In this document: positions 3,155-28,017 of the stretch, piece by piece
Numbering within the stretch: the first letter of the stretch is position 1
Layout of the letters: each line of letters begins with the position of its first letter
IMG/VR virus record: IMGVR_UViG_2565956616_000006
Location: 1-43,312 of that record
Direction: 5' to 3' (one strand)
Origin: a virus
Taxonomy: Duplodnaviria > Heunggongvirae > Uroviricota > Caudoviricetes
Length of the DNA: 43,312 nt
Notes under the pieces: model-generated
Seen by the model: the letters and a program-made list of their open reading frames with translations, nothing else
Told to the model about the DNA's origin: nothing
The model's database searches: none
Translations under genes and position numbers: made by a program

Positions 3155-3156
3155 CC

Positions 3157-3852: not shown

Positions 3853-3862
3853 GGGGTAATCA

Positions 3863-5278: not shown

Positions 5279-7116
5279 TGAAAGTAACTGCAAACGGTAA
5301 GACATTTACCTTTCCTGATGGTACGAGCACCGAAGATATTGGCACCGCCATTGATGAGTATTTTGCTGGTCAGGCTGTTCAGCAACAAACAGTTAATCAG
5401 GCCAATAATGCACCAACACGGGAAGAACCATCATTGATGCAACAAGCTGGCGATTGGCTCACTGGTGGTCAAAGTGCAGGGCAAATTGCAGAACAGGCTG
5501 GTCGTGGTCTGGTAAACATACCATTTGACGTATTGCAGGGCGGCGCAAGTCTGATTAATGCAATCAGCCAGGGGCTTGGTGGGCCAAAAGTATTGGATGA
5601 TGTTTATCGTCCAGTAGACAAACCGACAGACCCATACGCACAAGCCGGTGAAACAATTGGTGGGTATTTAGTTCCAGGAGTTGGAACGGCAGGAAGCATG
5701 GCTATTGGATCGCTGGCAGAGGCCGCAAATCAGAAAGGTGATTTCGCACAAAATGCAGCTAAAAATGCCGGAGTTAACCTTGCCGCTCAGGGTGTTCTTT
5801 CCGCAGCAGCAAAGGGAATAGGGCGTGGAATAACGGCTATAAAAGGTGATATTGCGCCAGAAGTGGCGAAGAAAATTGCCACATCAGAATCGATGGGCGT
5901 GACACCAATGACATCTGATGTTATCCCGCCGAAAAATGCTTTCACTCGCGGACTTACTCAGGATGCTGAGGGGGCTTTGCTCGGGACAGGCTCAAAGCGA
6001 GCGGAGCAATATGCAACGCGTAGTAAGCTGGTAAGCAATTATTTTGACCGTTTTGGTGAGTACAACCCTGATGATGTGGTGAAATCTCTGACCACCACGT
6101 TAAGGGGACGGAAGGATGCCGCTGGCGCTGTTATCAATGACGTCACCAATAAAATGGGTAATGCCGCAGTTGATACCACAAATACCATGAATGCTCTGAA
6201 TACAGCGATCGCAAGACAGGAACGGCTTGGGACGTCTGCCAATCAAAGCCTGCTTACATCCTTGCGTAACCTACGTGAAGAATTAGCAAACCCTGCAACT
6301 GATTTGGATGTTACGTTTGATCTCTTGCGTCAGCACAGAACAGCATTTAGATCCAATGTTCAGGGAGATGCTATGGTCTTCCCCAACCAGGCAAAAGCAG
6401 CTACCAATATGGTAGAGAATGCAATGTCAAAAGACCTTCGTAACGCAGTTGCTAAAAACCTCGGTGCATCAGACGCAGCAAAATACCTTAAAGCAAATTC
6501 CGATTATGCAAACGTTTATAATAAGGTGCTTAATAAAAACATTGCCAACAAGCTCAACAAGGCAAGCAGTGAAGCCAGTCCTGAACTTATAAATACCGTT
6601 GTATTAAGCAGAAAACCATCTGACGTGAAACGAATCTGGAGCGCACTGGATGATAAGGGAAAAGATGCTATGCGTGCAGCTTACGTCAGCAAAATAGCGG
6701 AAAAGGCCGGGGACTCTCCAGCCAAGTTCATCACTGAAGTTAATAAGCTGAAATCTCAGTCAGGCGGTGAAATTTACAACACTATTTTTTCTGGAAAGCA
6801 CATGAAAGAGCTTGATGCTCTTCATGAAGTTCTACAGCAAACAGCAAGGTCAGACACCGCAAATGTAGTAACTCAGACGGGGCAATCGCAAGCCAACAGG
6901 ATAAGGACGATTGGCGCAACTGCGACCCTTGGCGTATCAATGGGGCTTGAGGCTGGTTTTGGTGCAATGATGCGCTTGTATGAGTCAAAAGCAGCAAGGA
7001 ATGCTCTCTTACGTTTGGCAAACACCAAAGCAGGAACACCAGCCTATGAAAGAGCGATAAATAACGCTGCGAATGCCATCAGACCGCTGTTTGCTACTGA
7101 GGCAACACAGCAGTAA
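5275..7116 (+). CDS. gp16: P22 gp16-like ejection (E) protein, 613 aa
   Basis: Position after gene 20 with ATGATG coupling. Size close to P22 gp16. C-terminal motif NALLRLANT...AY.RAI. Confidence 0.8.
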
Positions 7117-7140
7117 CGTATGGGAAATTGGATTCAATCG

Positions 7141-7530
7141 CTAACATTTTCTTTTTACTTTTCCAACAAAAGCTTTGGTTGAATCCATATTTCCATAACC
7201 GGAAATGGTTTTTGACATTAAAACTGTTCCAGTAGGATGTATTACCCATGAGTCGATAACGCGTTGAGTTTCGCCATTCGCGCCGATTCCTATGATGGAG
7301 TTTTTAGACAATGCTTTGTAAGCCATGCCGCCCGCATCTGTCCCAGAATATGTGATGCTGGCATCTTCACCGTTTGTCTTAATGATGAATGTTCCACTAA
7401 AACCATCTTCTTCCGGATGGAAATTATTTCGTTCTGAATAGCTTATTCCGCGCATATCTCCAACGACCCAGCACTCTGCTGTAGCCCCAAAAGATATGAA
7501 TAAGAACATAGCAGTAAGAAATTGCTTCAC
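7141..7530 (-). CDS. Small exported protein of unknown function (moron), 129 aa
   Basis: GTG start preceded by AAGGAGG. Signal-peptide-like N-terminus MKQFLTAMFLFISFGATA/E. Opposite strand to the late operon, in the slot where P22 carries sieA. Confidence 0.6.
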   Translation of the reverse strand: MKQFLTAMFLFISFGATAECWVVGDMRGISYSERNNFHPEEDGFSGTFIIKTNGEDASITYSGTDAGGMAYKALSKNSIIGIGANGETQRVIDSWVIHPTGTVLMSKTISGYGNMDSTKAFVGKVKRKC

Positions 7531-7647
7531 GCCAACCTCCTTAGTTTTGAGCAGGATACCATGAAAAAAGTAAACATCTTTTGCCTACTTCACATTTGAA
7601 TGGTTTGTCATTAGGATGTTTCCGGTTTTTTAAATATGGAAATTGAT

Positions 7648-8067
7648 ATGAAGAGGATTATTGGCGTCGTTGCTGGCGCTATATTGTTATCTGGGTGCGC
7701 AACTATTGTTGGTGACGAAACGCAGCTTGTGCAAGTGAACAGCAATCCTTCCGGTGCGAGCTTTAAGGTAAAAGACGAATCAGGCGTGATTGTTGCGCAA
7801 GGCAAGACCCCGCAAGGAGTAACTCTTGCCAAGTCAGATGGTAGTTATTTTGGCAAAAAGAGCTACCAGCTCACTATGGAAAAGGATGGGTACGAACCAG
7901 TCACCCTGCCAATCAAAGCCAATGCTAATGGTTGGTATATTGGTGGAAACCTTGTGTTTGGTGGGTTAATTGGTTGGCTTGCTGTAGATCCTTTTAATGG
8001 TGGGATGTATACCTTGAAGCCAAAAGAGGCAAACGCATCTCTTATACCATCAACAAAGCAAGACTAA
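7648..8067 (+). CDS. Lipoprotein with a PEGA-like domain, ~139 aa (the ORF track starts at 7636)
   Basis: MKRIIGVVAGAILLSG/C lipobox. NPSGASFKV...G.TP..V.L...Y.L...KDGYEPV resembles the PEGA fold pattern. Followed by a strong terminator. Confidence 0.7.
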   Translation: MKRIIGVVAGAILLSGCATIVGDETQLVQVNSNPSGASFKVKDESGVIVAQGKTPQGVTLAKSDGSYFGKKSYQLTMEKDGYEPVTLPIKANANGWYIGGNLVFGGLIGWLAVDPFNGGMYTLKPKEANASLIPSTKQD

Positions 8068-8075
8068 TAAATAGG

Positions 8076-8098
8076 ACCCACCTTCAGGTGGGTTTTTT
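8076..8098. terminator. Bidirectional rho-independent terminator between the lipoprotein gene and mnt
   Basis: ACCCACC-TTCA-GGTGGGT stem-loop followed by TTTTTT. The mnt stop codon lies within it on the other strand. Confidence 0.8.
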
Positions 8099-8335
8099 GT
8101 ACAAATCCTTCAGCGTATCAAACACCATCTTCTTAACAAGCTCTGACTGCTCATCAGCGAGTCGTTCTGCATCGTCGCGATATCCAGTCACAGGCGATGG
8201 TTTTGATAGAGCATCTTGGACGATTTGTAACAACTCGGAGTTCATTGATCTCCCATTCGCCTCCGCCCTGAATTTTAATTTCTCCCTTACTTCCATAGGC
8301 ATACGGAAGTTAAAGTGCGGATCATCTCTAGCCAT
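8084..8335 (-). CDS. mnt: Mnt repressor (RHH), 83 aa
   Basis: MARDDPHFNFRMPMEVREKLKFRAEANGRSMNSELLQIVQDAL... is essentially the P22 Mnt sequence. Confidence 0.95.
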   Translation of the reverse strand: MARDDPHFNFRMPMEVREKLKFRAEANGRSMNSELLQIVQDALSKPSPVTGYRDDAERLADEQSELVKKMVFDTLKDLYKKPT

Positions 8336-8357
8336 GCCATCACTCCAAGTTAGTGTA

Positions 8358-8409
8358 TTGACATGATAGAAGCACTCTACTATATTCTCAATAGGTCCAC
8401 GGTGGACCT
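8358..8409. promoter_or_regulatory. immI control region: Pant (-35 TTGACA 8358-8363, -10 TATATT 8381-8386), Arc operator (8363-8383), Mnt operator (8393-8409)
   Basis: ATGATAGAAGCACTCTACTAT is the classical 21-bp Arc operator. AGGTCCACGGTGGACCT is the 17-bp symmetric Mnt operator. The 17-bp promoter spacer was read directly. Confidence 0.9.
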
Positions 8410-8425
8410 ATATTGTGAGGTGAAT

Positions 8426-8587
8426 ATGAAAGGAATGAGCAAGATGCCGCAGTTCAATTTGCGGTGGCCTAAAGAAGTATTGGATTTGGTACGCAAGGTG
8501 GCGGAAGAGAATGGTCGGTCTGTTAACTCTGAGATTTATCAGAGAGTAATGGAAAGCTTTAAGAAGGAAGGGCGCATTGGCGCGTAA
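8426..8587 (+). CDS. arc: Arc repressor (RHH), 53 aa
   Basis: [52 protein letters not shown] matches P22 Arc. The ORF-track start at 8363 is an upstream in-frame artefact running through the operators. Confidence 0.95.
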
Positions 8588-8589
8588 AG

Positions 8590-8658
8590 TTGAAGCCCCA
8601 ACTGCGGGAACAGTCAGGGCTTCGGTATCAACAAATCGGATTAGGAAATATTGACATG
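8590..8658 (-). ncRNA. sar: Candidate sar antisense RNA (covers the arc-ant intercistronic region and ant RBS)
   Basis: A 68-bp arc-ant spacer, as in P22. On the minus strand a TATACT -10 lies just inside ant, and a GAAGCCC...GGGCTTC hairpin (8592-8624) sits at the distal end. Exact ends are not determinable by eye. Confidence 0.45.
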
Positions 8659-9534
8659 AAAAGTATAGCAAAGGCACAAAACGATTTCACCATCTTCAAA
8701 TTCGGCGACAGTGAAATCCGCGTCATCAACAAATGCGGTGAGCCGTGGTTTGTAGCAAAAGATGTTTGTGATGCTTTAACCCTGACTAACTCACGCAAGG
8801 CGCTTACTGCACTTGATGACGATGAAAAGGGAGTAACTTTAAGTTACACCCTTGGTGGTGAGCAGAATCTAAGCATTGTTAGCGAATCAGGTATGTATAC
8901 ATTGGTTCTGCGCTGCCGCGATGCTGTCAATAAAGGTTCGGTACCGCACAAATTCCGCAAGTGGGTAACAGCAGAAGTTCTACCTTCAATTCGCAAACAT
9001 GGCGAGTATGTGAAAGGCAAGAAAACCACTGTTGAGGAAAGAACGCCGCTACGCGATGCAGTAAACATGCTGGTAGGAAAGAAAGGACTTCGCTATGACG
9101 ATGCATACAATATGGTTCATCAGCGTTTTGGTATTGACAGCATTGATGAACTTTCAATTGAACAAATCCCGCTGGCCGTAGAGTACATCCACAGGGTAGT
9201 GCTTGAAGGCGAGTTTATCGGCAAGCAAGAGAAGAAAGCAAACGAGCTTTCTGCAAAAGAAGCAAACAGCCTTGTATGGCTATGGGATTATGCTAACCGT
9301 TCACAGGCATTATTCCGCGAACTGTATCCGGCATTAAAACAAATTCAATCGAACTATTCCGGAAGATGCTACGACTACGGTCATGAATTCTCGTATGTTA
9401 TCGGAATGGCGAGAGACGTTTTAATAAACCACACACGAGATGTTGATATTAATGAGCCAGACGGACCAATGAATCTTTCCGCATGGATGAGACTTAAGAA
9501 TAAAGAATTACCTCCTTCAGTACATAACTACTGA
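8656..9534 (+). CDS. ant: Antirepressor Ant, ~292 aa (the ORF-track start at 8590 is a TTG upstream extension)
   Basis: Position after arc. ATG at 8656 with AGGAAA 8 nt upstream. N-terminal BRO/Ant-type pattern (F.F....IRV......[11 protein letters not shown]...N). Terminator downstream. Confidence 0.85.
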
Positions 9535-9552
9535 CAGATAACCAACGCAACG

Positions 9553-9577
9553 ACCCAGCCTCGGCTGGGTTTTTTTA
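9553..9577 (+). terminator. Rho-independent terminator after ant
   Basis: ACCCAGC-CTCG-GCTGGGT followed by a run of T. Confidence 0.8.
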
Positions 9578-9634
9578 TGCCCAAAATTCACCGTAGCCAT
9601 GCTGCGGCCATTCCTTGTATCTGGAGCAAATTAA

Positions 9635-11440
9635 ATGACAGATTCAATAAATGCCAATGTTGTAGTGAGCATGCCTTCTCAACTCTTCACTATGGCGCGT
9701 TCTTTTAAAGCGGTTGCCAATGGCAAAATTTATATCGGAAAAATTGACACTGACCCGGTAAATCCTGAAAACCAGATTCAGGTTTATGTGGAGAACGAAG
9801 ACGGCTCTCACGTTCCTGTTTCGCAACCAATCATTATTAACGCTGCCGGATATCCGGTATATAACGGACAGATTGCCAAGTTCGTAACTGTGCAAGGCCA
9901 TTCCATGGCTGTTTATGATGCATATGGTTCTCTGCAGTTCAATTTCCCGAATGTGCTGAAATATGATCCTGATCAGCTTCGCCAGGAAATAACATCGACT
10001 GGAGATGGAAAGGGGGCTGACATGATACCCCTAACACAAGGAGGAACAATTCAGAATGCTGTGTTCGCAGTAACACCTCAGGCTTATGGCGCAACATGCG
10101 ATGGTGTGGCTGATGACTCAGATGCTGTTGAAGAAATGATGGCAGCCTATCCAAATCATTTGATTATTACAATCCCACCTGGTTCAGTGCTTACAATTAA
10201 ACGAAAGCTCGTATATGGAGGTAGGCGCTTTGAGGTTCGTGGATATTCTGGAGATATGACTAATAAGGTTATAGGAGCAGAGTCAAGTCAATTATATTGT
10301 GACGTTCCTGGGGACTATGCTATTCAATGCGAAAATTCGGATGTTTTTTTATCTGATGTCATTGTAAAGGGAATCCCACAGTATGGAAACGGTACTATCG
10401 GTACGAATAAAGGAATATCGACATTAAATGGTAATATTAAAACAAACCGCACTTCTTGGCTTGGGTTTGACGTTCCATGTCAAGGTATCAATTCTTTTTA
10501 CGTAACATTTATAGATACAGATTGGCTTGCAATTAAAAATGGCCCAGATATACAGCGGGCATATAACATTAAGTTTATAGGCGGAAGATCTGTTGATTTT
10601 GATACATTTTTCAAAATGTCAGCCGCTGCTGGTAATGGTCCGATTAATTTTATTGCCATGGCGTTTGAACGGTGGACGAATTACGTTGTTGGTACTGATT
10701 CTGCTGCACTTATTCGACCGCAAAATATAGCGTTTAAATTTTGTTACTTTGAAAATATGGATGACCAATCTATTTATAACGGTCTTACTGGACGGGCAGG
10801 CGCTGCGACTCCAGGTGATGCATTTTATAAAAAGTATGCTTATGCCCGCATACTGGTCGGTACGCCAACGTCTTTCAGCATGGACGAAACTAACACTGTA
10901 TATGCTAAAGGGCTTGAAAACGGATGTATAGCAATTGATTCTTGGGGTATACGGGATCTTGTGTTCAAGCCTAAAATTGTTACTCCAGCAGACTCATGGA
11001 ATAGTAACCAGAGGCCATTAAGCATGGTTAGGGCAACCTATCTTGACCATGTCGATGTTTTTAATAATAACACCTCACCAGATGGTGACTTAGGGTTTCC
11101 ATTTATATCATCTGATAACTCTACACTGTTACCAACAATAAGATCAGGCGTTGGTGTATCCCATGGGAAAACAGTATTGTTTAATGGTTTCTACAATCAG
11201 ACTATAACATTCCAAGATGTTCCAGCAGGTGTCAATGTATATCAAGATATAACAACAACAGAAAAGTTAGACATGGTAAATGCAAGTGTTAAGATAACAT
11301 CAAGAAGTGCAGCTTCTGCTATTGCCACAACTCAATTGCAGGTGTTATCTTCAAATAAAATTCGCGTACACATAACAAATGGTCACAGTAACCCTGTAAC
11401 ATTTTCTGTGGCAATTGTAATTCCATATTTATTCAAATAA
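9635..11440 (+). CDS. gp9: Tailspike: conserved P22-type head-binding N-domain plus a divergent receptor-binding/depolymerase domain, 601 aa
   Basis: Residues 1-~117 (MTD...ANVVVS......F....[34 protein letters not shown]...[28 protein letters not shown]......NVLKYDPDQ) match P22 gp9. The remainder differs, with a beta-helix-like start A.TPQAYGA.CDGV.DDS.A. Confidence 0.9.
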
Positions 11441-11446
11441 TCTAAA

Positions 11447-11468
11447 AGCCCATTACTGGGCTTTTTTA
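11447..11468 (+). terminator. Rho-independent terminator after the tailspike gene
   Basis: AGCCCA-TTAC-TGGGCT followed by TTTTTT. Confidence 0.8.
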
Positions 11469-11804
11469 TTTTCAGCACACCAATCGAGGCGTGCTTTGCA
11501 AATAGCTTTAACATTTCTTCTATCAGCTAATAATCAAAGGCATGAAGTCTATCATCCAAGTCTCAATCGATCGATACTTGCGGTAGTTGATGAAGAAAAA
11601 CTCTGGTACACAAAGCTTTGCACTGGATTGCAAGGCTTTGTGCTCTTCTGTGGATGTGTGGCTACATGTTTGAAGATCGTTGTGCCGTATTTGTGACATA
11701 TACATGACAACATCATGCATCAACTTTCTGTTTGTGCCATCAACTATAGCTTAGTGAATGCGGTTAATGCTTGCTAAAACAGATAGTTATGATTGGTGCT
11801 ACAG

Positions 11805-12015: not shown

Positions 12016-13230
12016 GTGAAACTCAATGCCCGTCAAATAGACACAGCCAAGCCAAAAGAGAAGGCTTACAAGCTGGCCGATGGTGGCGGTTTGTATCTCT
12101 TGGTAAAACCTAATGGAGGTAAATACTGGCGACTTAAATATCGTGTAGCTGGTAAAGAGAAGCTATTGGCACTAGGTGTTTATCCTGAGGTTACTCTAGC
12201 CGATGCTCGGGCAAAACGTGAAGATGCGAAAAGAGGTATCGCTGGTGGTATCGATCCGATGGAAGCGAAACGAGAGGAAAAGATTGCCCGGGAAACGCAG
12301 TTAAACAACACCTTCAAAGATATTGCCATTGAGTGGCACAGCAGCAAATTAAAAAAATGGTCTGCTGGTTATGCTTCAGACATCCTCGAAGCCTTCAACA
12401 AAGATGTGTTCCCTTACATTGGCAAAAAACCCATCGCCGAAATCAAACCACTTGAACTTCTGAATGTGCTGCGTCGCATCGAGGGGCGCGGTGCTACAGA
12501 AAAAGCCAAAAAAGTGAGGCAACGGTGCGGGGAAGTTTTCCGCTATGCAATAGTCACTGGTCGCGCAGAGTATAACCCTGCACCAGACCTTACTAGCGCG
12601 ATGCAAGGCCATGAATCTAATCATTACCCTTTCCTTACAGCCAAAGAATTACCTGATTTTTTCAAGGCATTGTCCAGTTACTCAGGAAGCGCATTGGTTG
12701 TTATGGCGGCTCGTCTACTGATTATCACCGGCTTGCGGACTGGCGAACTACGTGGCGCATTATGGGATGAAATTGATTTCAACAAGGCTATCTGGGAGAT
12801 ACCCGCTTCACGTATGAAAATGCGGCGGACTCATATTGTGCCATTGTCTGAGCAGGCTCTTTCGCTTATTGGGAAGATTAGAGAAATAACAGGCAATTAC
12901 CCTCTTATGTTTCCCGGGCGCAATGATCCAAGGAAAACAATGAGCGAGGCCAGCATAAACCAAGTGTTTAAGCGCATTGGCTACGCTGGACGTGTAACTG
13001 GTCATGGGTTCCGGCACACTATGAGTACGATTTTGCATGAGCAGGGCTATAACACCGCGTGGATAGAAACGCAGCTCGCTCACGTTGATAAGAACTCAAT
13101 TCGTGGCACATACAACCATGCGCAATATCTGGATGGAAGGCGGGAGATGCTTCAATGGTATGCCGACTATATGGATTCTCTCGAGCATGGCGGAAATGTG
13201 GTGCATATGGTGTTTGAAAAACACGCATGA
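12016..13230 (+). CDS. int: P4-family tyrosine integrase with N-terminal arm-binding (DUF4102-type) domain, 404 aa
   Basis: N-terminus L.ARQI..AKP.EK.YKL.DGGGLYL.V.P.G.K.WR.KYR..GKEK.L.LG.YPEV.LA.AR. Catalytic R (GLRTGELR), HGFRHT, Y (RGTYNH). Immediately downstream of a tRNA-derived att. Confidence 0.9.
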   Translation: MKLNARQIDTAKPKEKAYKLADGGGLYLLVKPNGGKYWRLKYRVAGKEKLLALGVYPEVTLADARAKREDAKRGIAGGIDPMEAKREEKIARETQLNNTFKDIAIEWHSSKLKKWSAGYASDILEAFNKDVFPYIGKKPIAEIKPLELLNVLRRIEGRGATEKAKKVRQRCGEVFRYAIVTGRAEYNPAPDLTSAMQGHESNHYPFLTAKELPDFFKALSSYSGSALVVMAARLLIITGLRTGELRGALWDEIDFNKAIWEIPASRMKMRRTHIVPLSEQALSLIGKIREITGNYPLMFPGRNDPRKTMSEASINQVFKRIGYAGRVTGHGFRHTMSTILHEQGYNTAWIETQLAHVDKNSIRGTYNHAQYLDGRREMLQWYADYMDSLEHGGNVVHMVFEKHA

Positions 13231-13658: not shown

Positions 13659-13862
13659 ATGGCTAATTACAATTCATTAATTCGTCTCTCTGAAGTTCAA
13701 AGGCGAACTGGTTATAGCAAAGCATGGATTTATCGTCTTATTAGTCAGGGGAGGTTCCCTAAACAGGTAAAAATTGGAAGTCGGGCAATTGCTTTTGTTG
13801 AGTCTGAAATAGATGAATGGATTGAGAAGTGTATATTAGAATCTAGAGACGAGGTGGCCTGA
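13659..13862 (+). CDS. alpA: AlpA-family (MerR-like HTH) transcriptional regulator/excision activator, 67 aa
   Basis: L.RL.EV..RTG.S...IYR.I..G.FP.....G.R...F...EI.EWI is the AlpA/Phage_AlpA pattern. Typical position after a P4-type int. Confidence 0.85.
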   Translation: MANYNSLIRLSEVQRRTGYSKAWIYRLISQGRFPKQVKIGSRAIAFVESEIDEWIEKCILESRDEVA

Positions 13863-14293
13863 TGGAAAAGAAAAACCGCCCATTACAGGCGGCTAATTCA
13901 GATATTCGTGTATCTGATGTTACGCCCCTTACAAAATCCCTTCAAGCACCAAAGCGCACACCGAAAAAGCATCGTGCCAGAGTCTATATGCTGCGTACTG
14001 GTATAGAGGGATGGACAGAAAATGACATTCTTCGCTACTGCCGTCTGTCTTCTGGTCGTAACTATGCAACAGAGTTAGAACGCCAGCTTGGAATCACTCT
14101 GGAGCGTATCGACGAAAAGAATCCTGATGGTATCGGAACACACCTTCGCTACCGTTTCTCCTGCCGTGGTGATGTTCTGAAAGTGATCACTCATATTAAC
14201 CATCTTGCGAACATAAATGATCACAACGGACTTTCTCAGCAGGAAATTGCCGACATTCTGAAACTCTACCCGGACGCGTTTAACGCCGCCTAA
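13862..14293 (+). CDS. Hypothetical protein, 143 aa
   Basis: TGATG coupling to alpA; same-strand operon. No family recognised. Confidence 0.55.
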   Translation: MEKKNRPLQAANSDIRVSDVTPLTKSLQAPKRTPKKHRARVYMLRTGIEGWTENDILRYCRLSSGRNYATELERQLGITLERIDEKNPDGIGTHLRYRFSCRGDVLKVITHINHLANINDHNGLSQQEIADILKLYPDAFNAA

Positions 14294-14305
14294 CGGAGAC
14301 TGAAA

Positions 14306-15139
14306 ATGAACATCGAAAAAAGCAGATTAATTTCTGAGGCCGCCCCTCATCTGAACGCCTCTCTGGGCACAATTAACGGTAATGAATTTGCCGCAATTGT
14401 CCCGGTTATTCCTGGTCATATCGGTGGGCGTGAAACCAATATTGTTAGCGCAAAAGCGTTACACAAAGCGTTGGGCGTGGGAAAAGACTTCTCTACATGG
14501 ATCACTGATCGCATCTCTGAATATGACTTCACCATTGGGCACGATTACTCAGTCCATAAAACAATTTCCCCAAATTTGGGGAAAAGCCCGAATGGCGCGG
14601 CTTACAGCAAGATAAAGCACTCTGGCAGACCCGGCAAAGACTATCTGTTAAGTGTCGGAATGGCGAAAGAACTGGCAATGATCGAACGCAATGATCAGGG
14701 TCGCGCTATCCGCCGTTATTTCATCCAGTGCGAGGAAGAATTACAGCGTAGCGTGCCTGAAATCGCCGCCCGCTATCGTCGCCAGCTAAAAGCCCGTCTC
14801 AGTGCCGCAAACAACTTTAAGCCAATGTGCGATGCGCTGAATATGGCCCGTGCCGAGATGGGTAAAACGACGCAGCAACACCACTACACAAACGAGAGCA
14901 ATATGATTTCTCGTATCGTTCTTGGTGGGCTAACTGCTAAGCAGTGGGCGCGGATAAATGGCTATTCTGGCGAACCTCGCGACCATATGAACGCAGAACA
15001 GCTTGAGCACCTCTCATATCTCGAAAGCACCAATATCACGTTAATTGATATGGGCATGGAATATGAGCAGCGCAAAGGAGAACTCACCCGCCTGTCGCAA
15101 CGCTGGCTCGCCAAGCGTCTGGAGGTGGTCAATGTCTAA
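14306..15139 (+). CDS. AntA/AntB-type phage antirepressor-like protein, 277 aa
   Basis: N-terminal pattern (....V.AK.LH..LGV.KDFS.WI..RI..Y.F..G.DY, YLLS..MAKELAM.ER...G...R.YFI.CE) resembles the AntA domain. Confidence 0.65.
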   Translation: MNIEKSRLISEAAPHLNASLGTINGNEFAAIVPVIPGHIGGRETNIVSAKALHKALGVGKDFSTWITDRISEYDFTIGHDYSVHKTISPNLGKSPNGAAYSKIKHSGRPGKDYLLSVGMAKELAMIERNDQGRAIRRYFIQCEEELQRSVPEIAARYRRQLKARLSAANNFKPMCDALNMARAEMGKTTQQHHYTNESNMISRIVLGGLTAKQWARINGYSGEPRDHMNAEQLEHLSYLESTNITLIDMGMEYEQRKGELTRLSQRWLAKRLEVVNV

Positions 15140-15314
15140 GCCAACAGGAACACCACAACCACAAAAACGCTACAAAGATGCCCACGGAGCACTCGTTACT
15201 GTCGAAAGCGTGTCTCACAACCGAGTGACGTTTTATCGCGACGGGTATCAATCGCCATGCGTACAACCGCTGGCGCGTTTCATGAAGGAGTTCGCGGAGG
15301 TTAACAAATGCTAA
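15132..15314 (+). CDS. Small protein, 60 aa (DUF4222-like by recollection)
   Basis: ATG at 15132 preceded by GGAGGTGG. Overlaps the stop of the upstream gene. The ORF-track start at 15045 is an extension. Confidence 0.5.
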   Translation: MSKPTGTPQPQKRYKDAHGALVTVESVSHNRVTFYRDGYQSPCVQPLARFMKEFAEVNKC

Positions 15315-15745
15315 CCGTCCAGAAGAAGACATTTTCACTGGCTGGTATGTCGCCAAAATCCAGCAATATGACGGCAAAGTCAGGCATTAATACCGCAGAT
15401 ACAAGCAAAGTTTATCATTTGCTGGTGGTCGGAACGGATGCCTTAACCATATCAGAAATCTCGGGCGATGATATTAGCATTGAGAAGGTCAGCGGCTGCG
15501 CCAGAAAATTTCTGGTCGTAGATGATGTCTTCCGCTCGTGTAGTGACTCCACAAAAACATTCGTCCACGCGCGTGACGTTAACGAAATGAGCGCGATGTA
15601 CTGTGCATCTGGTGCTTCCAATAGCGAGTTTTCGGAGTCCATAAAAAAGAGCTTGCCGTTATGCGGCAACACGGTTTATGGTTATAAGGCACCTCATAAA
15701 ACGGGTGCCGGGATTGGCGTCCTGGTAAATCGAATGGCGACATAT

Positions 15746-15767
15746 GACGCGCCGAGCGTCTTTTTTT
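15746..15767 (+). terminator. Intrinsic terminator inside the early operon, 9 nt downstream of an antisense-RNA target site
   Basis: GACGC-GCCGA-GCGTC followed by TTTTTTT. ATCGAATGG at 15729-15737 is complementary to the loop of the RNA at 15835-15913. Confidence 0.6.
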
Positions 15768-15834
15768 ATGTCGTAGGTCTGACTCACCCATTTTTTGGGC
15801 GTTGGTGTATAATCCAGCGCCTTTGTCAATCAAT

Positions 15835-15913
15835 GGTGGCTCAGGCAGGGGCTTCTTCGGAAGCGCCGGTATCCATTCGAGCCGGTTACGCCAACCCTGT
15901 CTGGGCTACCACC
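15835..15913 (+). ncRNA. C4/CI-type immunity antisense RNA candidate (79-nt cloverleaf-like fold)
   Basis: The closing stem pairs 15835-15850 with 15895-15913 (5 bp, then a bulge, then 11 bp including G-U pairs). One inner hairpin is GCTTC-TTCG-GAAGC (UUCG tetraloop). A second hairpin, GCCGG...CCGGT, carries the loop TCCATTCGA. That loop is complementary to TCGAATGG(A) at 15730-15737 and 15952-15960. A TATAAT -10 lies at 15808-15813. Confidence 0.7.
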
Positions 15914-15969
15914 AGCGAAATTGGCGTTTCCGGTGGTAGCGTTACATGCTATCGAATGGAGGCTGCCAC

Positions 15970-16164
15970 ATGCTGGCTACTACCCCTACCCAAAAACCGC
16001 AATTTATCTGGATTATCGCCGCAGTTCGCCGCGATTGCCCGACAATTACCGCCAAAATTCATCATATTGCTGCCGAGTCTGAACGCGATGCTCGCCGTTC
16101 TCTGGTGCGCGATCACGTCTGCTTTTTTGCTGGTCGTATCCGCATGGAGGTGGCTCATGATTAA
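15970..16164 (+). CDS. Icd-like (host cell-division inhibitor family) small protein, 64 aa
   Basis: MLATTPTQKPQFIWIIAAV.... resembles Icd-like proteins of P1/P4-type elements as remembered. Its GGAGG SD (15958-15962) is overlapped by the antisense target site. Confidence 0.6.
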   Translation: MLATTPTQKPQFIWIIAAVRRDCPTITAKIHHIAAESERDARRSLVRDHVCFFAGRIRMEVAHD

Positions 16165-16375
16165 AACCTACGATGTGCATATGGATCCCCTCGAACGCAC
16201 AAGCCAGATCATCACACTGACAGAAGTGATTAACGACATTCTGGTGAGCAACTCTCCCTCACGAGACGAAAGACTGAAGGCGTTACTCGCGATATTGGAT
16301 CTCGCCGTTCGTGACGTTCATTTCCTGCTGGAAGGTGGCGAAATGCCAGGAAAAACGGGGGCAACCAATGAATAA
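16157..16375 (+). CDS. Hypothetical small protein, 72 aa
   Basis: ATG at 16157 after GGAGGTGG. Overlaps the icd-like stop. This is the C-terminal part of the 355-aa ORF-track call. Confidence 0.55.
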   Translation: MIKTYDVHMDPLERTSQIITLTEVINDILVSNSPSRDERLKALLAILDLAVRDVHFLLEGGEMPGKTGATNE

Positions 16376-17987: not shown

Positions 17988-18351
17988 AAATGCAGAAATG
18001 GCGCTTAGCTCAGCAATCGGAGAGCAGGTGGCAAAGATTGCTGGTGCTGTGTGGATTCATAACCTTCATTCTACTGGTGAAGAGAAAATGGTAATTCAGA
18101 CGCCAGAGGGACGCACCATTACTACATCTCTGAAGCCGTCAGATGTTTGTGATCTGATTTGCGCATTCATGTACCCAGCAATGAGGACTGTCCACGGCGA
18201 TAAGTGGAAACTTGCGACAACCGCTGAATTTGATATGTGGCTAAACAATGATGGCATGCTGACTGATTACGGAATAACCAAGTGGCAGATGCTGGTTAGC
18301 CATATCGCAAACGCTATAGACCACGTGGGGTACGGTGATGCGAAACATTGA
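17980..18351 (+). CDS. Hypothetical protein, 123 aa
   Basis: Overlaps the previous gene by 8 nt. Same operon. Confidence 0.55.
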   Translation: MRENAEMALSSAIGEQVAKIAGAVWIHNLHSTGEEKMVIQTPEGRTITTSLKPSDVCDLICAFMYPAMRTVHGDKWKLATTAEFDMWLNNDGMLTDYGITKWQMLVSHIANAIDHVGYGDAKH

Positions 18352-21094
18352 TCTTATCCGTCAGGTTATCAGTGCGTCTGAAAACAACTGGCCTCATGTG
18401 CTGGGCTGCCTGAACATAAATGTCCCTGACTCTCCGCGCCGTCATGCTCCCTGCCCTGCATGTGGGGGCAAAGATCGATTCCGGTTCGATGACAACGGGC
18501 GCGGTAGCTTCATCTGTAATCAGTGCGGCGCTGGTGATGGGCTGGATTTAATTAAACGCGTAAATAACTGCGACACAACAGAGGCGGCGCTTCTTGCCGC
18601 TGATGTTCTGGGTATTGATTACCGGACAACGGAAACACCAGAAGCCACCAGCCAGAAACGGGAACAACTGGAAACCGAGCGCCAGCGACGCGAACAGGAG
18701 CGCCTGAAAAGGGCAGAGAAGGACGAACAACAAAGACGGGATACGTTTTCCCGTCAGTTTGATGACATGCGCAGAAAGGCTGTAAACGGCAAATCTGATT
18801 ATCTGGTTGCGAAAGGGGTAGGTGATTTTACATTCCCCGTGTTGCCCGATGGATCTCTGTTGCTGGCGCTGGTGGATAAATCCGGCGCAGTAACAGCAGC
18901 ACAGACTATTACCTCACATGGTGAAAAAAGACTCCTGACAGGTTCAGCAAAGCGGGGGGCATATCACGCCATAAACGCACCAGAAACAACACAGAGCATC
19001 TTAATCGCAGAAGGTCTGGCAACGGCATTATCTGCCCATTTAATTCGTCCAGAGGCGCTGACAGTGGCGGCGATTGATGCCGGGAACCTGTTATATGTCG
19101 CCCAGGTACTGCGGGATAAATTTCCTTCAGCACAAATCATCATTGCTGCGGATAACGACCACAGCGAAGGAAGACAAAACACGGGGAGAATAGCAGCAGA
19201 AAAAGCAGCTTTATCTGTTTCTGGATGGGTGGCATTACCCCCGACAGATCACAAAGCAGACTGGAATGATTACCACCAAAAACACGGCATTAAATGCGCC
19301 ACAGAAGCGTTCAATAAGTCAATGTACCAACCACAGGGTAATGGCGTGAAACAGGAGCCACAGACCATTGAGGGAAGCGATTTTAAGGTTATGGATACCG
19401 ACCCACTGAAACCAAGAATAGAAAGCCGCGAGGATGGTATTTATTGGGTATCTCCGAGAGCTGACAGCCAGAGTGGAGAAATCATCAATAACGAAAGCTG
19501 GTTATGTTCTCCGTTAAGCGTTATCGGTACTGGCAGAGACGATAAAGACCAGTATCTCATTCTTCGCTGGCTGTCGTTTGGTTCTGAAACGCCGACAACC
19601 GCTGCCATTCCACTGGCTGATATTGGTGAACGTGAAGGATGGCGCACACTTAAAGCTGGTGGGGTAAATGTCACGACCAAAAGCAGCCTCAGAGCAATAC
19701 TGGCAGACTGGCTACAACGCAGTGGCTCTCGTGAATTGTGGCGTGTTGCTCATGCCACTGGCTGGCAATGCGGAGCGTACATCATGCCTGATGGGGAAAT
19801 CATCGGAACACCTGAAAATCCTGTGCTGTTCAGCGGGAGAAGCTCAGCCGCAGCCGGATATACCGTCTCAGGGAGCGCGAAAAGCTGGCGTGATAACGTG
19901 GCGCGTCTGGCCTTTGGTAACTATTCAATGATGACCGGGATCGGCGCAGCACTGGCAGCGCCATTGATTGGGCTGGTGGGCGCTGACGGGTTCGGCATTC
20001 ATTTCTATGAGCAGTCGAGCGCAGGTAAGACCACCACGGCAAACGTGGCGAGCAGCTTATACGGCAACCCTGATTTACTGCGGCTGACGTGGTACGGAAC
20101 CGCGCTGGGGCTGGCAAATGAGGCCGCCGCCCACAATGACGGACTAATGCCGCTTGATGAAGTTGGTCAGGGCGCTGATCCTGTCAGCGTTTCACAGTCT
20201 GCCTATGCGTTATTTAACGGTGTAGGGAAACTGCAAGGCGCTAAAGATGGTGGAAACCGGGATCTAAAACGCTGGCGTACAGTGGCAATCAGCACCGGAG
20301 AAATGGATTTAGAAACATTTATCGCTACTTCCGGGCGAAAAACCAAAGCCGGGCAACTGGTGCGACTGCTGAATATTCCGTTGAGTAAAGCAGTACGCTT
20401 TCACGATTACCAGAACGGAAAACAGCACGCAGACGCACTGAAAGACGCTTACCAGCATCACCACGGCGCGTCCGGGCGTGAGTGGATTAAATGGCTGGCA
20501 CACCACCAGCAACAGGCTATTAAAACCGTTCGTGATTGCGAAAGCAGATGGAGAAGCCTGATCCCATCCGATTATGGTGAGCAGGTTCACCGTGTAGCCG
20601 CGCGATTTGCCATTCTAGAGGCCGCATTGTTGTTAGGCGAGGTTGTAACAGGCTGGGATGCTCAGACATGCCGTGATGCGATACAGCACAGCTATAACGC
20701 ATGGTTGCGCGAGTTCGGCACAGGTAACAAAGAGCATCAGCAGATTATTGAACAAACGGAGGCATTTCTTAATGCCTATGGGCTTAGCCGTTTTGCACCA
20801 TTTCCATACAGCCCGGCAGATTTGCCCATCAAAGATTTAGCCGGATACCGTCAGCGTGGAGAACATGACGAAAGCCCAATGATTTTCTACACATTCCCGG
20901 CCACATTTGAAAAGGAGATCGCATGTGGTTTCAACGCAAAACAGTTTGCTGAAGTGTTGAAAAAAGCCGGGATGCTAACCCCACCAAACAGCGGTCGTGG
21001 ATACCAAAGAAAATCACCACGTATTCAGGGACGACAAATAAACGTTTATGTACTCAATTACCAGCCAGGAGATTATAACTCATCTGAAGAATGA
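18335..21094 (+). CDS. P4 alpha-type primase-helicase: Zn-ribbon, Toprim and DUF927/D5-like NTPase, ~919 aa
   Basis: CPACGGKDRFRFDD...G.FICNQCG zinc motif. Toprim-like LIAEGLATALS...IIIAADND. Walker A SSAGKTT. Followed directly by iterons. Confidence 0.85.
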   Translation: MMRNIDLIRQVISASENNWPHVLGCLNINVPDSPRRHAPCPACGGKDRFRFDDNGRGSFICNQCGAGDGLDLIKRVNNCDTTEAALLAADVLGIDYRTTETPEATSQKREQLETERQRREQERLKRAEKDEQQRRDTFSRQFDDMRRKAVNGKSDYLVAKGVGDFTFPVLPDGSLLLALVDKSGAVTAAQTITSHGEKRLLTGSAKRGAYHAINAPETTQSILIAEGLATALSAHLIRPEALTVAAIDAGNLLYVAQVLRDKFPSAQIIIAADNDHSEGRQNTGRIAAEKAALSVSGWVALPPTDHKADWNDYHQKHGIKCATEAFNKSMYQPQGNGVKQEPQTIEGSDFKVMDTDPLKPRIESREDGIYWVSPRADSQSGEIINNESWLCSPLSVIGTGRDDKDQYLILRWLSFGSETPTTAAIPLADIGEREGWRTLKAGGVNVTTKSSLRAILADWLQRSGSRELWRVAHATGWQCGAYIMPDGEIIGTPENPVLFSGRSSAAAGYTVSGSAKSWRDNVARLAFGNYSMMTGIGAALAAPLIGLVGADGFGIHFYEQSSAGKTTTANVASSLYGNPDLLRLTWYGTALGLANEAAAHNDGLMPLDEVGQGADPVSVSQSAYALFNGVGKLQGAKDGGNRDLKRWRTVAISTGEMDLETFIATSGRKTKAGQLVRLLNIPLSKAVRFHDYQNGKQHADALKDAYQHHHGASGREWIKWLAHHQQQAIKTVRDCESRWRSLIPSDYGEQVHRVAARFAILEAALLLGEVVTGWDAQTCRDAIQHSYNAWLREFGTGNKEHQQIIEQTEAFLNAYGLSRFAPFPYSPADLPIKDLAGYRQRGEHDESPMIFYTFPATFEKEIACGFNAKQFAEVLKKAGMLTPPNSGRGYQRKSPRIQGRQINVYVLNYQPGDYNSSEE

Positions 21095-21856: not shown

Positions 21857-22318
21857 ATGGAACTAAAATTTATTGATAACCCTGTGCGATTACAGGCCTT
21901 TCTTAACGAGCCAGGCAATACCGAAAATATTGTTGAGCCGGGGCACACGTACTACATCAAGCCTGATGCGGTATATCTCGGCATCTACGAAGGATTGGTG
22001 CTGGCTGGCGTTCATGAAGTGCGTAACTTCTGGCATAGCATTGTTGAATGCCATGCGGTGTACGACCCCGGATTCCGTGGTGAATATGCACTGCAAGGGC
22101 ATCGATTATTCTGCAAATGGCTTCTCGAAAACTCACCATTCCTTAACAGCATTACCATGGTTCCTGACACCACCAAATACGGACGGGCAATTATCCGTTT
22201 GCTTGGCGCTACCCGTGTTGGTCACCTTGATGATGCTTATATCAGATGTGGTAAACCCGTCGGCGTAACGCTTTATCAGTTAACTCGGCAACAATATAAG
22301 GAATTCAGCGAATGTTAA
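21857..22318 (+). CDS. gp14-like protein, second copy (satellite-borne), 153 aa
   Basis: Same size and position as 2699-3154. Shared motifs: CHA.Y.P..RG, G.....(L/I)G..RVG. Confidence 0.65.
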   Translation: MELKFIDNPVRLQAFLNEPGNTENIVEPGHTYYIKPDAVYLGIYEGLVLAGVHEVRNFWHSIVECHAVYDPGFRGEYALQGHRLFCKWLLENSPFLNSITMVPDTTKYGRAIIRLLGATRVGHLDDAYIRCGKPVGVTLYQLTRQQYKEFSEC

Positions 22319-22989
22319 TTACCCACATAGCTCATAAACATCTCAATCGTGCCGTATACGAAAAAGGCGGTGATGGTGGTGCCTCTAAAGCTCAGGCGAA
22401 GGCCCAGCAGCAGGCAATTGATTTGCAGCGCGAGCAGTGGAATACGGTGATGAATAATCTCAAGCCGTATGCAGAAGTCGGATTGCCTGCTTTACAACAA
22501 CTACAAGGACTGATGACTCTGGAAGGGCAGAATAAAGCCGCGAATGATTTCTTTGGTTCTGGTTTATATAAAACACAGGCAGATCAGGCCCGTTATCAGA
22601 ACCTTGTCTCAGCAGAAGCTACCGGGGGGCTTGGCTCAACAGCTACCAGTAACCAGTTATCTTCCATTGCGCCCATGCTTTATAACAATTGGCTTAGTGG
22701 GCAAATGCAAAATTATGGAAACCTGCTAAATGTCGGGATGAATGCGGCATCAGGGCAGGCAACAGCAGGGCAAAACTACGCCAATAATACCGGGCAACTC
22801 TTGCAGGGGCTTGGCGCTATTCGTGCAGGTCAGGCGCAGCAGCCATCCAGTCTTGCGCGTGGTATTGGTGGGGCGGCATCAGGCGCTTTAGCGGGTGCGC
22901 AACTTGGTTCCGTTGTTCCGGGTATAGGTAATGTCGCCGGGGCTATTGGTGGTGGGCTTATTGGTCTTGTTGGGGGGCTTGGATTCTAA
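22312..22989 (+). CDS. gp7-like ejection protein, second copy, 225 aa
   Basis: Aligns by eye with 3157-3852 through KGG.GG, W/FNT.MNNLKP, QARYQ.L..AEATGGLGSTATSNQL..IAP.L...WLSGQM.NY.NL and the Gly-rich hydrophobic tail. Confidence 0.85.
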   Translation: MLITHIAHKHLNRAVYEKGGDGGASKAQAKAQQQAIDLQREQWNTVMNNLKPYAEVGLPALQQLQGLMTLEGQNKAANDFFGSGLYKTQADQARYQNLVSAEATGGLGSTATSNQLSSIAPMLYNNWLSGQMQNYGNLLNVGMNAASGQATAGQNYANNTGQLLQGLGAIRAGQAQQPSSLARGIGGAASGALAGAQLGSVVPGIGNVAGAIGGGLIGLVGGLGF

Positions 22990-24410
22990 TGGCGACATGG
23001 CAACTTGGCGGGCTGCCTAGCATGGCACCGCAAAATGATAATGCTCCTCGTTCTTCCGTTCCTCAGCCTGTGCAGTATCAGCAGCAGCCAAACGTAGGTT
23101 TAATGGCGCTACAGGGGCTAAGAGGCGTTGCTGAGATTAATCAGCAGGCACGTCAACAACAGCGTAAAGCAGAGTTTCAGAAAGCATATGCCGGGGCTTT
23201 TGAGTCTGGAGACAGAAACAAAATGCGCAGTCTTATTTCTGAGTATCCAGAAGAATTTGAAAGCGTTCAGAAAGGGATGGGCTTTATTGATGACGACCAG
23301 AGAAATTCTATTGGTCATCTTGCGACTAGTGCTCAAATCGCATCTTCGCTCGGAACTGGGGCATTTGGAAAATTCATAGCAGATAACGAAGATGAAATGC
23401 GTCGCTTGGGAATTTCTCCTGAGTCTGTTGCCGAAATGCATGTTAATGATCCACAGGGATTCCAGCGGCTTGCTGGTAGTATGGCACTGTTTTCTCTCGG
23501 TCATGAGAAGTATTTCGATATCAAAGATCAAATGGAAGGTCGGGATATTGAGCGTGGCAAGTTGGCAGAAACAATCCGCAGCAATCAGGCTGGCGAAGCA
23601 CTTCAGGCGAGAGGGCAGGATATTAGCCGAGCAAATGCGTTAACGTCAGCATATGCACCAACAGCAGCAATGCAGAATTACAATCAGTACGCTCAAATGT
23701 TAAAGGAGGATCCAGAGGGGGCGGCGGCATTTGCGGCAGCGGCTGGAATTAATACAAACGCCAAAAAATTAATGAGTGTTAGAGAAAACGATGATGGCAC
23801 TGTCACAAAATACTACACAGACGGAAGTGAAGAGCAGGGAAAACTAAACCAGCCAATATCTGGAGATGGGTTTCGTCCAATAGCTTTGCCAACAGCCCAA
23901 AAGATCATGGAAAAGTCGCCAGAAGGGGCTAAAAAAGCTGCTGGATTTGCATACAGGGTTAGGGATGCTCTTGATTCAATAGATACACTGAAAGACCAGC
24001 TTAGCCCACAGCGAGTGGCGATCATTAATAATGCTTTGGGTAATGGGACGCTGGCTAACTTAACGCTCAGCCCAACAGAGCAGCAATACGTTGTTAATGC
24101 TAATGACGCAATAATGGCAATACTCCGTCAGGAAACAGGGGCAGCTATCGTACCTGCTGAAATGTCAAAATATTATCAAATGTATTTCCCTCAGCCTGGC
24201 GACTCCACAAAAACCATTGATACCAAGCGCCGGAAGATGGAAAACCAGTTCAATTCGCTGAAAGCTGCTTCTGGTCGAGCTTATGATGCTTTGCGGGTTA
24301 TTTCAGCAGTTGACAGAGGAACTTCTTCTTCGTCGCAGACATTGCCGCAATCTGAGCAGGTATCACAGCCAGCAGCCAGCAGTAACTTTTCTTCACTATG
24401 GGGTGATTAA
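22989..24410 (+). CDS. gp20-like ejection protein, second copy, 473 aa
   Basis: MATWQ.G start, 473 vs 471 aa. Shared [20 protein letters not shown] block, which is 52/55 nt identical to the prophage copy. Confidence 0.85.
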   Translation: MATWQLGGLPSMAPQNDNAPRSSVPQPVQYQQQPNVGLMALQGLRGVAEINQQARQQQRKAEFQKAYAGAFESGDRNKMRSLISEYPEEFESVQKGMGFIDDDQRNSIGHLATSAQIASSLGTGAFGKFIADNEDEMRRLGISPESVAEMHVNDPQGFQRLAGSMALFSLGHEKYFDIKDQMEGRDIERGKLAETIRSNQAGEALQARGQDISRANALTSAYAPTAAMQNYNQYAQMLKEDPEGAAAFAAAAGINTNAKKLMSVRENDDGTVTKYYTDGSEEQGKLNQPISGDGFRPIALPTAQKIMEKSPEGAKKAAGFAYRVRDALDSIDTLKDQLSPQRVAIINNALGNGTLANLTLSPTEQQYVVNANDAIMAILRQETGAAIVPAEMSKYYQMYFPQPGDSTKTIDTKRRKMENQFNSLKAASGRAYDALRVISAVDRGTSSSSQTLPQSEQVSQPAASSNFSSLWGD

Positions 24411-26515: not shown

Positions 26516-26533
26516 CTGGTAGCCATGGATGGC

Positions 26534-27148: not shown

Positions 27149-27262
27149 ACCAACCCCCTTTAGCGTTGTTTAGAATGGCAATCATCATATATCCAAGACA
27201 TGGCATTTGGTACATAGCTTGGGTCGGGATTTCAAATCCGATCCCCGTTGATGGGGCCGTTA

Positions 27263-27644: not shown

Positions 27645-28017
27645 ATCGAAATTATCGGATGGCGTATGCTGCTGGCAATATGAAGACCGATAGTATTAAC
27701 CGAAAAGCGATTAAGGAGTGCCAACTTTTCAGTAGAGAAACTAGCCAGCATAGGAAAATGTAGAAATTACCCAATTAATAGGTAAAAGTTATTGACACAG
27801 CCTGTAGTGGATAACGATATGAATAAAAACCACATATAGTGGTTTTTCGTGAGTGATGATAGTATCTATGTTAGTTTCCTAAGTAACTGTGCATTGACAT
27901 GTGGATAACTTCGGATAGAGTTACAGGCAACCGAGCCCGATCCTCTGTTTCTCCGCCGCCGATTTCAGGCATGTGAGTTTCACGGTCGGGCCTTTTATTA
28001 TCTTTTGTTTCGCCACT

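Follow-up and report, generated by a model that had tools for sequence, protein, structure and literature searches.

A C4/CI-Type Immunity RNA with Upstream and Downstream Target Sites in a Probable P4-Family Satellite Prophage

Introduction

Phage immunity systems built on a small antisense RNA are already known from phage P4 (CI RNA) and phage P1 (C4 RNA) and have been studied since the 1990s. Here we describe a locus of this type in a 43,312-nucleotide (nt) stretch of DNA from a virus of the class Caudoviricetes (IMG/VR record IMGVR_UViG_2565956616_000006, positions 1 to 43,312), which we call the window. In P4, the immunity factor is an RNA (PMC4825925, PMC5499578) that arises by processing of a leader transcript (PMC4825925), and both CI and C4 RNAs are substrates of RNase P (PMC5499578). 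Homologues of IsrK and C4 correspond to the seqA and CI RNAs in P4-like prophages (PMC3632133, PMC4825925), and homologues of CI and seqA have been reported in satellite genes of this type (Mageeney et al. 2023, PMC10111431). The P4 region also contains an open reading frame (ORF), eta, which, according to the summary of Forti et al. (1999) in PMC10111431, begins ahead of the constitutive promoter and has kil as its end. The same summary reports that eta is translated only from an upstream late promoter and that its translation prevents termination.

A preliminary description of the window, made from the letters alone, had proposed an unannotated C4/CI-type antisense RNA with two flanking targets, hidden inside an ORF call of 355 amino acids. 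On the sequence and comparative evidence given below, the reading of this locus as an immunity RNA of the C4/CI type, whose upstream target lies beside a terminator and whose downstream target covers the Shine-Dalgarno sequence (SD) of an icd-like gene, is fully supported. We compare its parts with those of P4, trace its specificity segments through related loci, and ask what the overlapping reading frame is for.

Results

The whole window was scanned against Rfam at curated thresholds, with three matches. The C4 antisense RNA family (RF01695) matches positions 15829-15916 with 79.5 bits against a cut-off of 45 and over the full model (model positions 1-87 of 87), so that the scan suggested in the preliminary description turned out positive. 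The isrK family (RF01394) matches positions 15689-15766, again over the full model (1-77 of 77), with 67.1 bits against a cut-off of 50; this is the stretch that holds the upstream target and the terminator. Phage P4, which a distant-similarity search of phage records retrieves, gives the same two Rfam matches in the same order, isrK and then C4. Its counterpart region was annotated as a “putative ash gene” in 1984-era records and later as “cI gene product.” At the base level, the window and P4 align collinearly through the promoter, the seqA leader, the terminator t1, the C4/CI RNA, seqC with the Shine-Dalgarno sequence, and kil, with a mean column identity of 76% over 560 nt. A P4-like layout was also found in 24 aligned loci. 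These two matches, the collinearity with P4, and the co-variation of loop and targets bear out the proposed antisense RNA. It is indeed unannotated: in RefSeq, the 100% identical sequence shows a pseudogene named “ash family protein” and a coding sequence of Icd-like type but no noncoding RNA feature. The parts of the locus are as follows.

15308-16375, plus strand: eta-like through-ORF, 355 amino acids, annotated “Ash family” (ORF call, Pfam, frame comparison)
15653-15682, plus strand: putative PLE-like constitutive promoter, -35 TTGCCG at 15653-58, 18-nt spacer, -10 TATGGT at 15677-82 (P4 alignment)
15689-15766, plus strand: IsrK-like leader RNA, called “SeqA RNA” in P4, which has the same element (RF01394)
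15714-15720, plus strand: a1 target TTGGCGT, complementary to a' (100% of cells paired; 6 of 7 pairs changed on both sides)
15730-15737, plus strand: b1 target (P4 seqA) TCGAATGG, complementary to the C4 loop (100% paired; 6 of 8 pairs changed on both sides)
15746-15767, plus strand: intrinsic terminator, the P4 t1 equivalent, GACGC-GCCGA-GCGTC, stem at 15746-60 plus T7 (terminator scan)
15808-15813, plus strand: TATAAT box, possible subfamily-specific internal promoter, 21 nt before the C4 stem (sequence)
15829-15916, plus strand: C4/CI-type immunity RNA (RF01695, fold stability, co-varying helices)
15872-15880, plus strand: b' loop (P4 seqB) UCCAUUCGA, first specificity determinant (complementarity, co-variation)
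15888-15894, plus strand: a' junction ACGCCAA, second specificity determinant (complementarity, co-variation)
15905-15940, plus strand: alternative hairpin pairing the C4 3' strand 15905-13 with 15932-40, a2 in the loop (co-variation)
15921-15927, plus strand: a2 target TTGGCGT (100% paired; 6 of 7 pairs changed on both sides)
15952-15962, plus strand: b2 target (P4 seqC) TCGAATGGA at 15952-60 with the Shine-Dalgarno GGAGG at 15958-62 (97.7% paired with b')
15970-16164, plus strand: kil/Icd-like gene, 64 amino acids, presented here as the first gene under immunity control (NCBIfam NF033153, 71 bits; aligns with P4 kil)

The segment 15835-15913 folds at -46.7 kcal/mol (z = -6.9), and none of 200 shuffled sequences is as stable. 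The cloverleaf-like fold described earlier is confirmed, with every part at or within 1-2 nt of the position first given, except that the closing stem (15834-50/15895-911), which had been called bulged, consists of 17 contiguous pairs, several of them G-U wobbles. Inside it stand the UUCG hairpin (15851-64) and a second hairpin (15865-86) with the loop UAUCCAUUCGAG, whose 12 nt contain the b' segment. The trinucleotide CCA follows the stem at 15912-14, a feature resembling those of RNase P substrates. All three C4 helices are 100% paired in the 24 aligned loci, with changes on both sides in 7 of 17 and 4 of 5 pairs of two of them; the third helix, which together with part of the loop was fixed by the pattern used for the search, is invariant because it was part of that pattern.

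Both target sites proposed for the loop are present. The upstream one, b1, lies just before the terminator, which begins 8 nt later (9 in the preliminary description), and the downstream one, b2, overlaps the GGAGG ahead of the ATG at 15970; the NF033153 match likewise agrees with the icd-like assignment of the gene that starts there. The 8-mer target occurs three times in the window, always within this locus (the loop being counted on the other strand), and that number is not significant in itself, as three occurrences were reached by 16 of 100 shuffled sequences. The weight lies with the clustering of the sites and with the comparative data. A further recognition module, absent from the preliminary description, is formed by a' with its two targets a1 and a2. 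Together, a' and b' with a1b1 and a2b2 make up the arrangement known from the C4 RNA of P1 and P7.

We scanned IMG/VR for the conserved hairpin arms while leaving six loop bases free, which yielded 120 stretches, and counted base pairs in an alignment of 24 diverse representative loci. The results for the pairings between RNA and targets, for the internal helices, and for one alternative hairpin are given below; the cell counts overstate the number of independent events because the loci compared are mostly related enterobacterial prophage contigs.

Upstream pairings a1:a' and b1:b': 100% of cells paired; 12 of 15 pairs changed on both sides; slid controls at most 49%
Downstream pairings b':b2 and a':a2: 98.7% of cells paired; 12 of 16 pairs changed on both sides; slid controls at most 46%
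Internal helices of leader and C4: 98.3% of cells paired; 19 of 44 pairs changed on both sides; slid controls at most 45%
Alternative hairpin 15905-13 : 15932-40: 99.5% of cells paired; 4 of 9 pairs changed on both sides; slid controls at most 65%

Among loci in a P4-type context there are at least eight loop classes, and for each of them the exact complement occurs at fixed positions on either side. Because the first set of loci required b-site matches, we repeated the b-site test on a set defined by the context of the t1 terminator, a marker that does not depend on the variable bases. In this set, both flanking hexamers are perfectly complementary to their own loop in 64 of 68 distinct loci. 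The 7-mer complementary to the junction is found on both sides in 63 of 63 distinct sequences. Seven junction classes and eight loop classes are seen in 17 combinations. Among the exceptions to perfect pairing at both b sites is an IMG/VR contig (L088, near position 8823) with a P4-class loop, TGTGAA, and the matching downstream target, together with an upstream target of the GTTAGA class. It looks like a recombinant whose autoregulation would no longer be coupled to its downstream control.

The alternative hairpin and the closing stem of C4 are mutually exclusive. The hairpin may have a role of its own. The segment 15912-75, taken alone, folds into another hairpin, which buries a2, part of b2, the Shine-Dalgarno sequence, and the AUG (free energy -28.2, z = -4.0). 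Its conservation is partial (74.5% of cells paired), and most of its well-kept pairs never vary. The two hairpins use a common strand, 15932-40, and the alternative one is the better supported. Hairpins that share this strand could form a three-way switch.

The candidate promoter has its counterpart in P4, where the elements read TTGCCT and TATAGT, also with an 18-nt spacer. Two elements ahead of the first target, TTGC at -35 and TAnnnT at -10, do not vary among the 24 diverse loci, and on this basis we take 15653-82 to be a probable promoter with a start near 15689. In its spacer (15653-15669) lies an inverted repeat (TTGCCGTTATGCGGCAA) that follows a run of six A, is called a minus-strand terminator by the terminator scan, and is partly kept in P4. 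The leader is composed of a 5' hairpin (15689-708), a hairpin carrying a1 in its loop (15709-24), the single-stranded b1, and the terminator. The first of these hairpins has compensatory changes in 6 of 7 pairs, and the terminator is conserved in 24 of 24 aligned loci, 8 nt past b1. Binding by Hfq and accumulation of the leader as a short RNA would be predicted from its likeness to isrK.

Does the C4 RNA also have a promoter of its own? A TATAAT box upstream of the fold had been pointed out, and it is present at 15808-13. As a conserved promoter it does not hold up: of the 24 aligned loci, 7 have the box, all of them members of the window's subfamily that differ in the flanking bases, and it is missing from the other 17 and from P4, which has a 42-nt insertion at that place. 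No -35 or TGn element accompanies it, and the promoter scan made no call there. We therefore reject it as a promoter of the family on the grounds of its restriction to one subfamily and the missing -35.

The through-ORF begins in an ATGCTAA overlap with the DUF4222 gene and spans the promoter and the two RNA genes. It then passes through kil in the +1 frame, to finish in the frame of the next gene (16157-16375). Its amino acids 124-232, encoded by nt 15677-16003, match the Pfam family PF10554 (Phage_ASH) at 105.2 bits, which agrees with the earlier suggestion that this ORF is the basis of Ash annotations. The match runs from the -10 box across both RNA genes into the first codons of kil. The P4 counterpart, Eta (214 amino acids), matches PF10554 at amino acids 37-161, and there too the domain coincides with the RNA genes. 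A literature search on “ash family protein” and PF10554 found nothing relevant. The N-terminal part of the through-ORF is unrelated between subfamilies. In the window, 15456-15562 (approximately 107 nt of the N-terminal part outside the Pfam match) is approximately 90% identical to E. coli genes annotated as “DNA-packaging protein.”

Two sets of observations bear on the nature of this ORF. All P4-type loci examined keep one frame open, the same one with respect to the RNA in each; it extends from 116 nt or more ahead of the first target as far as the end of kil, or further, and the other two frames are closed. The distances from first target to loop (120, 123, 135, 141, 153, 171, and 180 nt) are all multiples of three, and in one locus (L004) a +1 indel is offset by a nearby -1 indel. 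The open frame is missing in four lambdoid-type loci confirmed to carry isrK and C4 (L024, L047, L064, L119), so that the presence of the RNA genes is not enough to impose it. On the other hand, variable sites show no third-position excess in the through-ORF frame, whether in the spacer (12/14/12 by codon position), isrK (14/14/12), or C4 (8/7/8), and counts over 90 close pairs (166/209/138) show none either. The conservation of PF10554 is not due to selection on amino-acid sequence.

A purely spurious “Ash” ORF is ruled out by the frame that is open in all P4-type loci, the multiple-of-three indels, and the lambdoid controls. A real folded “Ash” protein is rejected because there is no codon-position signal. 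The best reading of these sequences is that the frame is kept open for being translated and not for an encoded protein. The earlier statement that the ORF is not a single real protein thus stands in so far as its amino acids are under no constraint; it goes too far in that the frame is kept open and has its counterpart in P4 eta, for which translation has been reported.

The kil gene differs from the through-ORF in this respect. Its variable sites are distributed 18/15/42 over the codon positions of its own frame, a third-position excess, and it is under protein-type constraint. In 49 of 60 distinct loci, kil is nested in frame with the through-ORF, as in P4. In the other 11, the window among them, a difference of 2 nt or 1 nt before the kil ATG puts it out of that frame, and the through-ORF passes kil in the +1 frame and finishes with the following gene. 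All 11 of these loci (approximately three lineages) have an open +1 frame over kil, against 24 of the 49 others, a difference that is not significant.

The locus lies between genes of a P4-like satellite set identified by Pfam: an integrase (12016-13230), an AlpA-type regulator (13659-13862), and an alpha-type primase-helicase. Two further features belong to this setting.

13659-15314, plus strand: upstream operon that feeds the through-ORF (ORF calls, Pfam, RefSeq)
18335-21094, plus strand: P4 alpha-type primase-helicase (Pfam Zn_Ribbon_Prim, Toprim_3, DUF927; operon position as for P4 alpha)

The upstream operon consists of an AlpA/Vis-like gene (13659-862), an ORF (13862-14293), an AntA antirepressor gene (14306-15139), and a DUF4222 gene (15132-314), all overlapping or closely spaced. 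The primase-helicase is presumed to be the replication gene held off by the immunity switch. A PHROGs scan of the neighbouring small ORFs found only families of “unknown function.” Approximately 10 kb from alpA to the first ejection genes (13.6-23.4 kb) are more than 99% identical to E. coli CRE1540 (NZ_CP019051.1), where the element has a different integrase and is placed between yicC and dinD. Because this core is shared in the presence of a different integrase, the regulatory and replication module moves between integration modules. Collinearity of the whole window with CRE1540 was considered and ruled out, and since only 13.6-23.4 kb are common, the flanks of the CRE1540 element are uninformative on the window.

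The rest of the window has features of its own. Positions 1-11650 are the late region of a P22-like (Lederbergvirus) prophage, with a stabilisation protein (580-1998), an injectosome translocase (3863-5278), an Ant antirepressor (8590-9534), and a tailspike (9635-11440). Rfam also matches a sar antisense RNA on the minus strand at 8588-8654 (71.6 bits), unrelated to the immunity locus. The satellite integrase follows directly after the prophage tailspike, and the adjacency of tailspike, integrase, and a helix-turn-helix (HTH) gene is also found in other E. coli genomes, which suggests a tandem arrangement of helper and satellite. Beyond the primase, at 21857-28995, the satellite carries diverged P22-type genes for head morphogenesis (phrog_651) and DNA ejection (phrog_598). 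Its Inj_translocase (22989-24410) has 41% identity to the copy on the prophage side (3863-5278), and an abortive-infection gene, Abi_2 (27973-28995), follows the head and ejection genes. The helpers parasitised by the element may be P22-like and not P2-like.

Discussion

The locus belongs to the C4/CI family, and its architecture, its RNA structures, and the co-variation of two modules with both pairs of targets are direct observations. Because it is collinear with P4, follows an AlpA/Vis-type gene, and precedes an alpha-type primase-helicase, we read it as the immunity region of a P4-family satellite prophage. We are highly confident of this reading, which takes the parts and their order to be as in P4 and includes the mechanism proposed below.

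The working of the switch, namely RNA processing, the effects on termination and translation, and the override by translation, is modelled on P4 and P1. The constitutive promoter at 15653-82 would start a transcript near 15689. Its leader would present a1 in a hairpin loop and b1 next to it, ahead of the intrinsic terminator, where transcripts would either stop or read on. From read-through transcripts an RNA of approximately 78 nt (15834-15914) would be cut, with RNase P making the 5' end, and would accumulate. Its b' loop and a' junction would then pair with the a1 and b1 sites of new leaders, raising termination at t1 and so limiting the synthesis of the C4/CI RNA itself. In P4, seqA and t1 reportedly serve the autoregulation of CI in this way, through termination. 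Pairing at a2 and b2 would hide the Shine-Dalgarno sequence of kil and block its translation, and the untranslated transcript would terminate before the replication genes up to the primase. Transcription of the AlpA operon from upstream would bring ribosomes on the eta-like ORF across the whole region and override the block.

Several points count against this account. Production and processing of the C4 RNA in this strain are predictions from the sequence only. The terminators that follow CI in P4 (timm, t4) are Rho-dependent or atypical and cannot be recognised by sequence, and premature termination that depends on CI is here an expectation carried over from P4. The first set of loci was chosen by matches at the b sites, and this was corrected for the b sites only; the a sites had no part in the selection at any point. 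Prophage contigs of Enterobacterales make up most of the comparison loci, and these are not phylogenetically independent. Finally, the eta-like ORF of the window is out of frame with kil, unlike that of P4, and the override step may differ in detail.

Other explanations of the locus have to be set against this one. That the 355-amino-acid ORF encodes a genuine folded “Ash” protein, with the RNA-like structures incidental, seems to us hardly credible. It can point to a Pfam match of 105 bits, to a frame open in all P4-type loci with spacer lengths differing by multiples of three, and to its RefSeq name. Yet its frame lacks the third-position excess that kil shows, substitutions compensate one another within RNA helices, the Pfam domain falls exactly on the RNA genes in the window as well as in P4, the N-terminal part is not homologous between subfamilies, and the known immunity factor of P4 is an RNA. 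It is highly improbable, too, that we are looking at the inactive relic of a decayed element whose regulatory RNA is functionless. The promoter, terminator, helices, both target pairs, Shine-Dalgarno sequence, kil, and primase are all intact, loop and targets match perfectly, and 479 of 5,426 complete E. coli genomes hold the same locus at a coverage of at least 80%. What speaks for decay is the mosaic nature of the region, of which 13.6-23.4 kb alone are common with the best-matching genome, and the pseudogene flag on the overlapping ORF in RefSeq; the flag, however, is an artefact that arises in annotation because the ORF overlaps the Icd-like coding sequence.

The remaining alternatives concern the mechanism. 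The leader 15689-15766 might act in trans as IsrK does in Salmonella Gifsy-1, titrating C4 or opening an inactive leader and so activating the downstream gene, a layer that could coexist with repression by C4. Since a1 and b1 are identical to a2 and b2, the leader must compete for the sites on C4; the isrK model matches over its full length, the free leader hairpin at 15912-75 sequesters the Shine-Dalgarno sequence and AUG, and there is a precedent with the STnc1160 parallel (PMC4825925). We nevertheless think such a layer quite unlikely, as that hairpin is only partly conserved and an activating role here is a prediction by analogy. The role reported for seqA and t1 in P4, autoregulation of CI, also speaks against it. 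Transcription of the C4 RNA from its own promoter at the TATAAT box, instead of or besides processing from the long leader transcript, is unlikely as well. The box is perfect, stands 21 nt before the stem, and is kept in 7 of 7 aligned subfamily members; but it lacks a -35 or TGn element, went uncalled by the promoter scan, and is missing in P4 and in 17 of 24 aligned loci, whereas the promoter conserved throughout the family sits upstream of the first target and the CI RNA of P4 is made by leader processing (PMC4825925).

Some of the observations might be joined to the account modelled on P4 in a wider reading. In it, the open “Ash/Eta” frame would be a ribosome track only, leading across the two RNA genes, the two modules would form a combinatorial specificity code that is recombined, a frameshift in the window's subfamily would have uncoupled the track from kil/icd, and the alternative hairpin, in competition with the C4 closing stem, would act as a switch in the precursor. 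We put this combination forward tentatively and judge the chances to lean somewhat against it.

The system is of a known type that curated Rfam models detect, and the locus adds little that is new for biology; its practical value lies in annotation. The label “ash family protein” is an annotation error, since the Pfam family is the translation of two RNA genes, and the locus itself occurs in the 479 of 5,426 genomes mentioned above. The comparison also gives a clean view of RNA-based heteroimmunity classes among satellites. That an ORF is apparently selected for translation and not for its product is a minor scientific point.

Comparison with Known Systems

Among the described systems, Salmonella Gifsy-1 (IsrK/STnc1160; Hershko-Shalev et al. 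2016, PMC4825925) resembles the window in its full-length isrK match and in a downstream C4-type RNA with complementarity to the leader. In both, the leader would be expected to occur in a short, terminated form and in a form that reads through. The activating role of IsrK was shown in Gifsy-1 and is only proposed for P4-type elements. The lambdoid loci of the Gifsy-1 type (L024, L047, L064, L119) differ from the window in the distance from isrK to C4 (approximately 25 nt), in the larger ORF of antirepressor type downstream, and in having no through-ORF.

With the C4 (icd-ant) system of P1 and P7 the window shares the RF01695 family, two recognition segments, both with one pairing partner upstream and one downstream, a downstream partner that covers the ribosome-binding site of an Icd-type gene, and, as we infer for the window, an RNA processed from the transcript under its control. 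The downstream cargo is different, a satellite replication operon instead of ant. The Rfam c4-a1b1 model reaches only 17.9 bits in the window against a cut-off of 46.7, and isrK fits the leader instead.

The likeness to P4 extends to the order and spacing of the parts, the position of the promoter, the terminator after seqA, seqC lying over the Shine-Dalgarno sequence of the kil orthologue, a through-ORF whose frame with respect to the RNA is the same, and the primase downstream. The two elements differ in several details. The window has 45 nt less between terminator and RNA, and a 2-nt change before the kil ATG takes kil out of the frame of the through-ORF, which ends in the next gene. Genes for ORF143, AntA, and DUF4222 stand between the AlpA/Vis homologue and the through-ORF, and the island carries P22-type ejection genes. 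The loop is CCAUUCGA in the window and CCUGUGAA in P4, and the junction is ACGCCAA in the window and UUCUCAC in P4. Because these specificity sequences differ, the window element should be heteroimmune to P4. In heteroimmune P4-like elements such as the retronphage phiR73, immunity specificity is reportedly set by matched changes in seqA, seqB, and seqC, and the eight loop classes described here show the same.

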